Shown here one piece after another: positions 8,601 through 14,600 of a stretch of DNA of 64,000 bases (position 1 is the stretch's first letter; every line of letters begins with the position of its first letter). Position numbers: made by a program. The stretch lies in NCBI RefSeq assembly GCF_044324785.1, contig NZ_CP172127.1. The stretch is one strand, 5' to 3'. Origin of the DNA: Escherichia coli. GTDB lineage: Bacteria > Pseudomonadota > Gammaproteobacteria > Enterobacterales > Enterobacteriaceae.

Positions 8601-11600
8601 CGCGCCATCAGGGCGCCGGTAAACAGCCCCACGCCTTCCTTACGCCCGCGATTGCCTTTTTCATCATACAGCCGCACGCGCTCCATCCCGCAGATCGGCG
8701 ATTTGGCGCAGACGATAAAGCCCGACAGCTCGCCCAGGGTTGCCAGATGGGCGTTGGCGAAATCGGCCATCTTCTCCGTCACATCCTCGTGCGGGGCGTG
8801 GCTGAAGCGCATGCGGATCTCCCCGACCGGGGTCTGCACCAGCCGGAGCGCCGGGCGGGGAACGGGCAGGCCGATCGCCATCTCCGGGCAGACGGGCTTA
8901 AACGCCACCCACTGCGCGAGCTCATCCATCACAAAGCCCATACGCTTATGCCCGCCGTCGAATCGCACGGCTGAGCCGGTTAAACATCCGCTGATCCCAA
9001 TGACAGGTTGCGTGTTCATGGCGCTGTCCTCTCTTCTGCTGTGGTTCGGGTAAAGAAAAGGGTCACGGTGGCCACCGTAATGCCGAATTTCTTCATCTCG
9101 GTTTTGTTAAACAAATGGCTGCCGTCCTGCAGGAACATCCAGTCGTCAAAGTGCAGCAGCCACCGGCTGCCGCTGGCCTCGACGTTCATGCTGTAGCGCC
9201 AGTGAAAGGCATTGCCTGCCGCCTGGCCGCTGGCCACGCCTTCGATATCCCCGGCGGTGCCCTGATAATGGTTATCGCCGGTGCGGCGAATGCGCCACAC
9301 CCGCTGCTGTTTCTCGCCATCGTCATAGACAAAGCGCTCATGGAGCGTCAGGGTGTCGCCGACGACGTCGCCATCGATCGCTACATGGAAGCGGCGCAGC
9401 TGTTTACCGCGGCGATCCTGCACCATCCCCCACGCCTCGGTTCGACCCTGAAAATAGTGGAAGATGTCGAGGGCGGGCTGCTGCTGCCGGTACTCGGTGA
9501 CCTCGATGCTGCAGCCGGCGAGCATCAGCATCAGCAGCGCCAGGCCACGGGTCAGAATGCGTTTCATGGTGTACCTCCGATCAACTGCTGACGCAGTTCG
9601 GGATAAGTGGTGCGCGGATCGAGCCAGAACTCGCTGACGCTGAGCGCAGGAGATGTGACCAACAGCGGCCGGATTCAGGGGCAGAACATTACTCTGGATG
9701 CCAGCAGCCTGACCAGCAGCGGTGCTGTTCAGAGTGCGCTGGAGTTGGCTCTGACCCTGAGTGGCGATGTTATTGCTGCCACCGGCAGAAAAATTACCGC
9801 CCTGGGCGATGCCCGCCTTACCGGGAAAGTGCTGGGTAACCAGGGATTAATCAGCGCGAAGACGCTGGAAGTGAATGGTGATTCGCTCAGCAACGGTGGC
9901 GAAATCAGTGGTGTTAACAGCCTGAATGTGACACTCAGTGGTAATCTGCAACAGCACGGTAAAATGCTGACAGGCGGTACATTAAACGTCAACGCCAGAG
10001 ACATCAGCAATAGTGGGCAGCTTCAGGGGGCGGATAACCGAATCACCGCCAGTTCGCTGACCAACTCAGGTCGTGTGCAGGGCGACAGCGGGCTGACTCT
10101 TACATTGCTGAATGCCCTGACCAACCAGACCAGCGGTGTGCTTCTCAGTCAGAACGTATCAGCGCTTTCTGCACCTGTGCTGACTAATGACGGCACCATT
10201 CAGGGCAACGGTAAAACCACGCTCAGCGCGGCAACGCAGGCCCACAACAGTGGCAAGATTCTTTCCGGCGGTGAGCTGACGTTCACCACGCCGGACTACA
10301 GTGGCAGTGGCTGGCTACAGGCCACTGACCTGCTGCTGAACGTGGCGAAGCTTGCCGGTAATGGCACTGTGATGGCGGCGAATCAGGCAACGCTCACAGG
10401 TAACAGTCTGACCAACCGTGGCCTGTTCCAGGCTGCACAACTGAACGTCAACACGCAGACCATCACCAACAGCGGCACGCTGCTGGGTAATCAGGGCCTG
10501 ACAATAAAAGGGAACAGCCTGAACAACGCCGGCGGGAAGGTGTTCAGCGGCGGTGATATGCTTGCTGAAATGGTCTCGCTCAGCGGCGCGGGCCAGCTGG
10601 TTACACTCGGTAACCTGACGCTGAAGCTCACACGTGGTTTGACCGCACAGGGCGTTATCGCCGCGAATAAACAACTCTCCGTCAGCAGCCAGGGTGATAT
10701 TACCAATGGCGCCACATTGCAGGGCAACGGTATCACGCTGAATGCTGCAGGCAGGCTGACCAACAATGGCCAGTTGACCGCCGGCAACGGCACCACGGCA
10801 CTGAGCGGCAGCGGGATTGCGATGAATGCCAGCGGCAGCCTGCAGGCAGGCGGGGACGTCAGCCTGACCAGCAGGGGAGATATCACTCTCGACGGTTTTA
10901 CCGGCACGACGGGTAGTCTGGTGTTAACGGTCGCCGGGGCAGTCATTAACACCGCACTGTTGTATGCGGGCAATAACCTCTCGCTGTTTGCCAGCACCAT
11001 CCGGAACCATCACGGCGATATGCTGGCGGGTTACAGCCTGGTGATGCAGAAAGATGTCAGTGGTGCCGCGAATGCTGAAGTGATTAATACCTCCGGGAAT
11101 ATCGAAACCACCCGCGGTGATATCACCATCAGAACCGGACATTTACTGAATCAGCGGGAGGGTATAAATGAGACAAAATCATACATTCCGGTTGAGAATG
11201 TCGCAGTACCTGATGGTGTAAATTCTGTTTCAGTCAGAGTGGGCGATTTAGGTGAAAATGGATGGGGATATTATGTGAAGTCCTGGAGCGGTACTGCCGG
11301 TGGTGGTTTTGAGGCATGGGCCGTTCCGACTGAAAAGGGAGCCACCCGGAAATTTCTGACTGGCACAACACGCGTCGATGTTGGTGCAACAGGGGGGGAT
11401 GCCAGAATTTCGGCCGGTAATAATCTGCTGATTGACGCGAACAAACTGGATAATACGGGAAGTCATCTTCTTGCCAGCGAGTTTGTCAGCCTGTCGGGTT
11501 CACAACTGAATAATCAGTCCTTCTTTGGCTATACACAGGATGAATACAATGTGTATCGCTATTACGGCAAACTGGCCATGATCCCCAACGACGGGCATCT

Positions 11601-14600
11601 GCAGTATGGAGATGCTTCTGCCGATGATCGCGTTACCTTTACTCTCTCCGGAGCTCCGGAATATGTCACCAGAGACACCGGTCAGGCGTAAGCGTACAGC
11701 CTGAACCGTCTGGTCAGAATCTGACGAATTAGACAAAGTGGTGTCCACCAAATAAGTAGTGGGAACCAAAGTGTCAGATATGCAGAAAAATGTGACTCCC
11801 GGCAGGCGAAAAGGCTGCCCTAATTATCCTCCCGAATTTAAACAGCAGCTCGTTGCTGCCTCCTGTGAACCCGGGATATCCATCTCAAAACTTGCTCTTG
11901 AAAATGGCATTAACGCCAATCTGTTGTTCAAATGGCGACAACAATGGCGCGAGGGAAAGCTGCTATTACCTTCTTCAGAGAGCCCCCAGCTACTTCCTGT
12001 GACTCTCGATGCAGCTGCCGAACAGCCAGAATCGCTCGCAGAGGGCCCGGAAACCCTCAGTATCAGCTGTGAGGTAACGTTCCGGCACGGGACGCTCCGC
12101 TTCAATGGCAATGTCAGCGAAAAGCTCCTGACTCTGCTGATACAGGAACTGAAGCGATGATCCCGTTACCTTCCGGGACCAAAATTTGGCTGGTTGCCGG
12201 TATTACCGATATGAGAAATGGCTTCAACGGCCTGGCTGCGAAAGTACAGACGGCGCTGAAAGACGATCCCATGTCCGGCCATGTTTTCATTTTCCGGGGC
12301 CGCAGCGGCAGTCAGGTTAAACTGCTGTGGTCCACCGGTGACGGACTGTGCCTCCTGACCAAACGGCTGGAGCGTGGGCGCTTCGCCTGGCCGTCAGCCC
12401 GTGATGGCAAAGTGTTCCTTACACAGGCGCAGCTGGCGATGCTGCTGGAAGGTATCGACTGGCGACAGCCTAAGCGGCTGCTGACCTCCCTGACCATGCT
12501 GTAAATCTCTTTATCCTGGTTGTCACAGAATAAGCCCGGTAAAATACGGGCTTATGAACGACATCTCTTCTGACGACATCTTCCTGCTGAAACAGCGCCT
12601 GGCCGAACAGGAAGCGCTGATCCACGCCCTGCAGGAAAAGCTGAGCAACCGGGAGCGCGAAATAGACCATCTGCAGGCGCAGCTGGATAAACTCCGCCGG
12701 ATGAACTTCGGCAGTCGTTCCGAAAAAGTCTCCCGCCGTATCGCACACATGGAAGCCGATCTGAACCGGCTTCAGAAAGAGAGCGATACGCTGACTGGTA
12801 GGGTGTATGACCCGGCAGTACAGCGTCCGTTGCGTCAGACCCGCATCCGTAAGCCGTTCCCTGAATCACTACCCCGTGACGAAAAGCGACTGTTGCCTGC
12901 GGCGCCGTGCTGCCCGAACTGCGGCGGTTCACTGAGCTATCTGGGTGAGGATACCGCCGAACAGCTGGAGTTGATGCGTAGCGCCTTCCGGGTTATCCGG
13001 ACGGTACGGGAAAAACATGCCTGTACTCAGTGCGATGCCATCGTGCAGGCACCTGCACCTTCGCGGCCCATCGAGCGGGGTATCGCCGGACCGGAGCTGC
13101 TGGCCCGCGTGCTGACCTCGAAGTATGCAGAGCACACCCCGCTGTATCGCCAGTCAGAAATATACGGCCGGCAAGGTGTGGAGCTGAGCCGTTCACTGCT
13201 GTCGGGCTGGGTGGATGCATGCTGCCGGCTGCTGTCTCCGCTGGAAGAGGCGCTTCATGGCTATGTCATGACTGACGGCAAACTCCATGCCGATGATACC
13301 CCGGTCCAGGTACTGCTGCCGGGTAATAAGAAGACGAAGACCGGGCGGTTGTGGGCGTATGTTCGTGATGACCGCAATGCCGGGTCAGCGTTGGCACCTG
13401 CAGTGTGGTTCGCTTACAGCCCGGACAGAAAAGGCATCCATCCGCAGACTCATCTTGCTTGCTTCAGCGGTGTGCTGCAAGCGGATGCGTACGCCGGGTT
13501 CAACGAGCTGTATCGCAATGGTGGGATAACGGAAGCTGCCTGCTGGGCTCATGCCCGCCGAAAGATCCACGATGTGCACGTCCGCATCCCGTCAGCACTG
13601 ACGGAAGAAGCCCTGGAGCAGATCGGTCAGTTGTACGCCATAGAGGCGGATATAAGGGGAATGCCGGCAGAGCAGCGGCTTGCTGAACGTCAGCGAAAAA
13701 CGAAACCGCTGTTGAAATCCCTGGAAAGCTGGTTGCGTGAAAAGATGAAGACCCTGTCGCGACACTCAGAGTTGGCGAAGGCGTTCGCGTACGCACTTAA
13801 CCAGTGGCCGGCACTGACGTACTATGCGAACGATGGCTGGGTGGAAATCGACAACAACATCGCTGAAAATGCCCTGCGGGCGGTAAGTCTGGGTCGTAAA
13901 AACTTCCTGTTCTTCGGCTCTGGCCATGGTGGTGAGCGGGGAGCGCTACTGTACAGCCTGATAGGGACGTGCAAACTGAATGACGTGGATCCAGAAAGCT
14001 ACCTTCGCCATGTGCTTGGCGTCATAGCAGACTGGCCGGTCAACCGGGTCAGCGAACTGCTTCCGTGGCGCATAGCACTGCCAGCTGAATAACACATCCC
14101 CGTCAATACGGCCCTCGCTGTACGCTTACTAATCCGCCGTGAATATAAATCAACAACGAGTGCGAGATAACACCATTTGTCCTGCAGGCGAATAAAACTG
14201 ATGTTGCCGCACCAGACGCGGTTTGGTGCGGCGGGGTGAAATTGCCGGTTCAGTAAATTTGGCAATGGCGGACTTTTGTCTTCGTTTACCCGGTAGTGAT
14301 GTTTAACTGGCTGTCGACTTGTCAGCCCGCATTCCCGCATCAGTCGTCGTGCCAGCCACCGGCCTGCATCAACGCCACTATGGCGCAACATCTGACTGAT
14401 TGCCCGGCTACCGACTGCGCCACGACTGAGAGCATGGACAGCCCTCACCCGACTTCGTAATTCAATTCTTTGCACATTAACAGGACGCTTCACCTGCGCG
14501 TAATAAATGCTACGGTGAATACCGAATAAATGACAAAGAACCCGCACTGGCCACTTTGCTTTCAGCCGTGTGATTAGCGCGACAGTTTCCCCGGGGATTT

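Follow-up and report, generated by a model that had tools for sequence, protein, structure and literature searches.

Within a 64,000-nucleotide stretch of Escherichia coli DNA (the window; NCBI RefSeq assembly GCF_044324785.1, contig NZ_CP172127.1), a 694-codon open reading frame (ORF) at 9607-11691 lies between a DUF3833 lipoprotein gene, which closes a block of sugar-utilisation, porin and YbgA genes, and the IS66-family insertion sequence (IS) ISEc8 (Table 1). The ORF is very probably non-functional, the decayed remainder of a class III (Tsx-binding) cdiBAI locus for contact-dependent inhibition (CDI) that was trimmed by two separate events.

Both termini of the ORF are set by neighbouring sequence. 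Its GTG start codon follows directly on an in-frame TAA (9604-9606), and its first five codons (V V R G S) are the antisense of a truncated Klebsiella-type gene in the sugar-block DNA; the GTG start is accidental. At the other end, the stop codon TAA (11689-11691) is formed by bases 2-4 of the left inverted repeat of ISEc8, which begins at 11688, and the last sense codon (GC/G) is completed by the first base of the element. A first-pass annotation of the window had reported an IS66-supplied stop codon at these positions, a short gap between the lipoprotein gene and the ORF (39 bp from the DUF3833 ATG to the ORF start) and the lack of a TPS domain, all of which were borne out. Scans of the 694-aa product gave Fil_haemagg as the sole Pfam match (E=1.8e-11) and the 20-aa FHA repeat TIGR01731 as the sole NCBIfam match (E=3.7e-4), both indicating the FHA-1 beta-helical repeats of CdiA, and revealed neither a TPS domain (PF05860) nor an N-terminal signal peptide. 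No sigma-70-like promoter was predicted within 9300-9800. In the PGAP annotation the ORF is already classed as a pseudogene that lacks both ends, under the name 'beta strand repeat-containing protein'.

Table 1. Features of the cdiA remnant and its immediate surroundings (positions in the window)
Feature	Positions	Strand	Description	Evidence
Chimeric ORF	9607-11691	+	694 codons: 5 antisense sugar-block codons and 689 cdiA codons; stop codon from ISEc8	
Distal FHA-1 beta-helix repeats of class III cdiA	9629-11046	+	~codons 879-1351	Pfam Fil_haemagg, TIGR01731, N44 identity, QKDVSGAAN boundary
N-terminal ~two thirds of class III (Tsx-type) receptor-binding domain	11047-11687	+	codons ~1352-1565	three STECO31 peptides, class III listing in Table S3 (PMC5371414), GC 0.50
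5' junction	9621-9628		8-bp microhomology GAGCCAGA common to sugar block and cdiA (cdiA nt 2628-2635, codons 876-879)	four-way alignment
ISEc8, complete (IS66 family, 2442 bp)	11688-14129	+	tnpA, tnpB, tnpC; left inverted repeat 11688-11709, right inverted repeat 14108-14129; no target-site duplication	Pfam HTH_Tnp_1, TnpB_IS66, DDE_Tnp_IS66; PGAP name ISEc8
3' remnant of Klebsiella-type 'hypothetical protein' gene	9564-9628	-	~21 codons; gene precedes DUF3833 in the operon	PGAP pseudogene at equivalent position
DUF3833 lipoprotein gene	9016-9567	-	last intact gene of the Klebsiella-derived sugar/porin/YbgA block	Pfam DUF3833, E=1.6e-64
IS3-family transposase remnants	14130-15300	-	conserved right flank of ISEc8, followed by a PhoX/outer-membrane protein/phosphoethanolamine-transferase module	PGAP pseudogenes

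Identity of the cdiA fragment

Megablast comparison with 5426 complete E. coli genomes, the set behind all genome counts given here, showed that 9606-11687 matches, at ~98% identity, an internal part of cdiA genes annotated as intact. The apparent start of this homology at 9606 was discarded as a run-on through imperfect similarity, since a four-way alignment places the overlap at 9621-9628. Alignment to the full-length cdiA of N44 (3236 codons, WP_001680718.1), which sits between cdiB and a YezG-type cdiI, gives 98.2% DNA identity over 2082 bp and assigns the fragment to coding-sequence nucleotides 2628-4694, that is codons 877-1565 of 3236 or about one fifth of the gene, in agreement with the initial description of a cdiA piece cut at both ends. 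Amino-acid identity to residues 877-1565 of N44 CdiA is 97% (673/694, the 5 junction codons counted in), and the substitutions private to the fragment relative to N44 include R932, Y1347, N1422 and N1483. In the Pfam map of the intact N44 protein, the TPS domain (36-288), PT-VENN (2893-2942) and the Endonuclease_NS_2 toxin (3097-3221) all fall outside 877-1565; the best Fil_haemagg_2 stretch spans 2377-2550 and the VENN motif lies at residue 2936, leaving the 3' end of the fragment (codon 1565) ~1370 codons short of VENN.

The class assignment was drawn from the supplements of a published CdiA survey (Table S3 and Fig S1 of PMC5371414), not from comparison with E. coli 536. Table S3 includes WP_001680718.1 among the CdiA proteins predicted to be class III (Ruhe et al. 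2017, PMC5371414), and the Fig S1 alignment has, in its STECO31 row, three peptides that the fragment carries towards its C-terminal end (KSYIPVEN, GATRKFLTG and YNVYRYYGK). Class III effectors use the nucleoside channel Tsx as receptor (Ruhe et al. 2017, PMC5371414). The receptor-binding domain can be delimited by two landmarks, namely QKDVSGAAN at residue 1352, equivalent to the CdiA-536 chimera point Ala1345, and PLPSGN at 1660, equivalent to Pro1637/Pro1669 in the same study (Ruhe et al. 2017, PMC5371414). By these landmarks the fragment retains ~470 residues of distal FHA-1 and ~214 of the ~308 residues of the receptor-binding domain, which is thus incomplete: the domain ends at ~1659, and the IS cuts it at 1565. 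On this sequence evidence the ORF is a middle piece of class III cdiA, and the PGAP pseudogene can now be named as a remnant of codons 877-1565.

The fragment thus shares with class III CdiA of the STECO31/STEC3 type (Ruhe et al. 2017, PMC5371414) the distal FHA-1 and the N-terminal part of the receptor-binding region, whereas the signal peptide, the TPS domain, the first 876 residues, the last ~third of the receptor-binding domain, YP/FHA-2, PT-VENN and the Endonuclease_NS_2 toxin are absent and, unlike in class III cdi loci, neither cdiB nor cdiI is adjacent. Searches with N44 queries (tblastn and blastn) found no cdiB, cdiI or further cdiA pieces in the window or in the 3 kb to its left, nor any FHA-2, PT-VENN or toxin sequence in the same range. 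Without a signal peptide, TPS domain, CdiB partner, toxin, immunity gene or upstream promoter-like site, the remnant cannot act in CDI, and it would be silent, without expression.

Junctions and their carriers

The 5' junction was resolved by a four-way alignment of the window, the sugar block of E. coli LH50-c (99.7% identical), a Klebsiella-type lac plasmid and the N44 cdiA gene. The window follows the LH50-c sugar block up to 9628 and cdiA from 9621 on, and the shared octamer GAGCCAGA is embedded in ~22 nt of imperfect similarity between the parental sequences. Such an overlap is the signature of a short-homology illegitimate join. The likeness to microhomology- or homology-facilitated illegitimate recombination lies in this 8-bp perfect overlap within a longer imperfect one, and both a deletion within one chromosome and a join to incoming DNA are compatible with it. 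The gene interrupted on the left is complete in LH50-c, where a 174-aa version precedes DUF3833; the rest of it is deleted in the window. In the first-pass annotation the 5' border had been drawn as a sharp, compositional boundary at the start of the ORF. The junction itself is real, but its place is inside the ORF, and the accompanying GC step is modest (~0.62 to 0.59, with a dip to 0.53); a sharper fall, to 0.50, occurs within the ORF at ~10950-11050, where FHA-1 passes into the receptor-binding domain.

The DNA left of the junction is itself foreign. Among 119 plasmid records matching the porin-YbgA-DUF3833 block, 107 are from Klebsiella (96-97% identity), which marks the block as being of Klebsiella origin; the DUF3833 gene, whose translated N-terminus carries the lipobox LAGC, is 97% identical to Klebsiella plasmid and chromosome sequences. 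In Klebsiella lac plasmids such as p027_SK3a, the block ends at an IS903-like inverted repeat, GGCTTTGTTGAATAAAT, 3-4 bp beyond the microhomology junction (window 9621-9632). This IS903-like end was considered as a mechanistic clue and set aside, given that LH50-c reads through both points, and its closeness to the junction is probably a coincidence or a reflection of a local hot spot.

At the 3' junction, the N44 cdiA gene reads CACCGGTCAGGC followed by TCTGAGAG, whereas the window reads CACCGGTCAGGC followed by GTAAGCG, so that the left IS terminus abuts cdiA nt 4694. The element has the features of ISEc8, namely a length of ~2.4 kb, GTAAGCG-type terminal inverted repeats and the tnpA-tnpB-tnpC gene order, and its left inverted repeat, GTAAGCGTACAGCC, pairs with 14108-14129 (22 nt, 82% complementary). 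A simple insertion of an IS66-family element is expected to leave an 8-bp target-site duplication. None is present here, the 8-bp flanks being GGTCAGGC on the left and TAATCCGC on the right, which argues against simple insertion and for a rearrangement. The reciprocal junction was sought with a chimeric query (right inverted repeat, GGTCAGGC and downstream cdiA), which found no record with >=80% coverage among the 5426 genomes, and none of these genomes carries ISEc8 at this site of a cdiA gene with an intact 5' part. The missing duplication, the right flank of IS3-family remnants and PhoX, and the missing reciprocal junction rule out a simple insertion of ISEc8 into cdiA.

Related islands provide the arrangement from which the 3' junction could have been produced. 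The right flank of ISEc8 is common to 41 genomes. In the pheU island of EC21Z-147, the order is cdiA-cdiI-helicase-hsdM-hsdS-AAA-IS3-IS1-HTH-ISEc8, followed by the IS3-family remnant, PhoX and the remaining module; its cdiI allele is the same as that of N44, and the relative orientation of cdiA and ISEc8 is the same as in the window. Joining cdiA nt 4694 to the left ISEc8 terminus in that arrangement corresponds to a deletion of ~14.75 kb. N44 shows this order as well, with cdiBAI upstream of the outer-membrane protein/phosphoethanolamine-transferase module, but has no IS there. Next to the right inverted repeat of ISEc8 (14129/14130), 37 bp (AACTCAGCATCAGCGGTTAATGAGAGGGCTGAACCGA) that are present in GF60, B771 and EC21Z-147 are missing from the window, a second, smaller deletion at an IS terminus. 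These features resemble known IS-anchored (adjacent) deletions or IS-IS recombination, in which one IS terminus adjoins a new flank without a target-site duplication while the other flank is conserved; the 37-bp loss at the other terminus is a further likeness, and no unusual difference was seen. From the sequence, one-step and two-step deletion routes are indistinguishable. ZYB39 and UTME-7 were considered as precursors and rejected, as their arrangement is unrelated: a cdiA gene truncated at its 5' end lies downstream of an IS66 remnant.

Both junctions were found in exactly five complete genomes: ES1, ST38 (OZ204848), A65EC, GF60 and I2. Their recurrence in five independently assembled genomes excludes an assembly artefact, which the first-pass annotation had proposed to recognise by a TPS domain and a cdiB gene contiguous with the fragment in the real genome; no such arrangement was found. 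The window is nearly identical to the chromosome of E. coli ES1 (ST38; NZ_CP133856.1, reverse strand), from which it differs across the ORF by one mismatch, and the three carriers compared (ES1, GF60 and I2) show 1-3 differences each. Position 9789 is A in the window and C in the ES1, GF60 and I2 records, so that the window comes from an ES1-like genome distinct from the ES1 record. To the right of ISEc8 three contexts occur: the IS3-family remnant without the 37 bp (ES1, ST38 and A65EC), the 37 bp with a pheU-type backbone (GF60), and a truncated ISEc8 followed by IS256 remnants (I2). Compared with GF60, the window is 99.88% identical over 4900-14129 but 98.3% identical over 14130-21700. Because this step falls exactly at the right end of ISEc8, it suggests that sugar block, cdiA fragment and ISEc8 were transferred as a unit from one island backbone to another by crossover at ISEc8.

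A search for the secretion end of the gene covered the carrier chromosomes. With a query combining the DUF3833 marker and the TPS region (sensitive blastn), no cdiA TPS DNA was detected in any of the five; each gave one matching place, that of the marker, while the whole query matched 723 genomes and its TPS part ~715 others. An earlier query of the marker with cdiB and TPS sequence gave two extra places in ES1, for which the E. coli ybgA homologue may be responsible. The cdiA region retained in the fragment is carried by 111 of the 5426 genomes, compared with roughly 715 for the TPS region.

Origin of the remnant and competing explanations

The observations can be brought together in a probable sequence of steps, whose order and exact mechanism we infer. 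The starting state would have been a class III cdiBAI locus in a family of tRNA-associated islands, upstream of the module made up of ISEc8, the IS3-family remnant, PhoX, the outer-membrane protein and the phosphoethanolamine transferase. An ISEc8-anchored deletion of ~15 kb would then have removed cdiA codons 1566-3236, cdiI and the downstream helicase and type I restriction-modification genes, either through intramolecular transposition of the resident ISEc8 or through insertion of a second copy in cdiA and subsequent recombination of the two copies. In a second event, a microhomology-mediated illegitimate join at GAGCCAGA would have linked cdiA codon 877 with what remained of the Klebsiella-derived operon at its truncated 3' end, taking away cdiB and the TPS-containing 5' 876 codons. 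The frame would still be open only because these events are recent. Afterwards, the unit of sugar block, truncated cdiA and ISEc8 could have been carried into different island backbones through crossover at ISEc8.

Several points weigh against this reconstruction. A precursor in which an intact class III cdiBAI locus follows the sugar block was not found in the comparison set, nor was one whose ISEc8 is complete and at the expected distance; in EC21Z-147 the leftmost 61 bp of the element are replaced. In B771, ISEc8 has the same right flank and likewise no target-site duplication, which leaves the ancestral insertion state undefined. The search for TPS and cdiB sequences was directed at the carrier chromosomes, and a plasmid-borne cdiBAI locus could exist in these strains. 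Finally, a weak GGGA lies 5-8 nt 5' of the GTG, and translation of a cytoplasmic beta-helix fragment may occur.

An adaptive alternative is that the fragment is a silent cassette, in which a stored class III FHA-1/receptor-binding sequence would recombine with an incoming or resident cdiA gene and change its receptor tropism, or, following the proposal in the first-pass annotation, would serve more loosely in the exchange of toxin tips. Receptor-binding domains are modular and exchangeable, and active recombination among them has been proposed (Ruhe et al. 2017, PMC5371414). The position of the fragment also fits: N44 CdiA and the EC93-type protein (plasmid pCP127 of EC93) share at least 95% identity up to ~residue 845 and then abruptly only 35-55% until ~1700, and the fragment lies wholly within this divergent block (aa ~845-1700), with its 5' end ~100 nt past the divergence point and its frame still open in five genomes. 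However, only ~two thirds of the receptor-binding domain is present, and an exchange of toxin tips is contradicted by the distance of ~1370 codons to VENN and the lack of pretoxin, toxin and immunity sequence, as well as by the lack of a partner, given that no carrier chromosome has a TPS-bearing cdiA gene. Judged against EC93-type cdiA as the single reference, the fragment has no conserved flanking arms, and recombination would therefore be expected mainly with another class III gene, without a class switch. Moreover, its borders are an IS terminus and an illegitimate junction rather than conserved cassette edges, and it is rare (5/5426 genomes). A cassette role is accordingly given little credence. 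Even less is given to its narrower form, in which a surviving class III-specific FHA-1/receptor-binding block could recombine into an incoming class III cdiA gene and its 5' end could hint at a preferred boundary for receptor-domain shuffling.

The comparison with orphan cdiA-CT/cdiI modules leads in the same direction. These modules, which are the established substrates of toxin-tip exchange, typically begin at VENN, carry a toxin with its cognate immunity gene, and lie downstream of cdiBAI (Poole et al. 2011, summarised in PMC9086364). The fragment resembles them in being 5'-truncated, in lacking its own start codon and secretion domain, and in its IS-rich island setting, but it ends far upstream of VENN, lacks both toxin and immunity genes, and is followed directly by ISEc8, with no cdi locus adjoining it.

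It is similarly improbable that the ORF encodes a shortened beta-helical protein with a use outside CDI, for example as an intracellular or Tsx-binding decoy. The open frame of 694 codons with its GTG start and weak upstream GGGA would permit such a product, and the neutral PGAP name is compatible with it. Nevertheless, a protein without signal peptide or TPS domain could not reach Tsx, which is exposed at the cell surface; the interval scanned for promoters contained no promoter-like site; and both the start and the stop codon arose by accident from the two junctions. The five near-identical occurrences give no sign of maintenance by selection, and an isolated class IV receptor-binding construct has been reported to be largely unstructured in solution. 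The weakest explanation, that ISEc8 merely inserted into an intact cdiA gene whose cdiBAI context is contiguous in the real genome, draws on the multicopy nature of ISEc8 (matches in 3511/5426 genomes) and on the fact that IS elements are classic sites of assembly collapse, and is scarcely credible in view of the five complete, independently assembled genomes with the same junctions, the missing target-site duplication, the IS3-family remnant and PhoX rather than cdiA on the right, the Klebsiella-type operon joined at a microhomology on the left, the reciprocal junction found nowhere and the carrier chromosomes without TPS DNA.

The decayed class III remnant is thus ordinary genomic debris, known in kind and representing no new system; of the two roles first suggested for the fragment, 'simply debris' was the right one. 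It adds one more example of cdi loci in E. coli tRNA islands that decay through IS-anchored deletions and microhomology joins, and carries little biological weight in itself. Such debris hitch-hikes between islands, with IS elements serving as portable homology. The finding has value for annotation, as ES1-like ST38 strains should not be scored as CDI-positive from this match.

The selC island

A tRNA-Sec gene (selC) at 25010-25104 and a tyrosine integrase gene at 23526-24710 indicate that the window from 1 to ~25000 is a selC-associated genomic island, with the cdiA fragment ~13-15 kb inside it. The first-pass annotation had contrasted a GC-rich sugar block with island DNA to its right; this contrast does not hold, as a single mosaic selC island includes both sides, and it is the sugar block that is the foreign, Klebsiella-derived part. 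The same modules recur in related islands at selC, pheU (N44 and EC21Z-147) and leuX (H8). The mosaic (1-25104) includes a phosphorothioate-dependent restriction endonuclease with an HNH gene and the GH43/MFS/xylA/porin sugar block, and also carries genes for PhoX, an outer-membrane protein, a phosphoethanolamine transferase, a TPR protein and the integrase. Between the porin gene and ybgA, the intergenic DNA at 7750-8050 has a GC content of 0.66 and repeated GCGCAGCGCCGCCGGGCAG and GCCGGATGGCGGC-type motifs of REP-like appearance. At 20209-21711, a gene for an EptA-like phosphoethanolamine transferase adjoins the outer-membrane protein gene, and this module is conserved across the selC, pheU and leuX islands.

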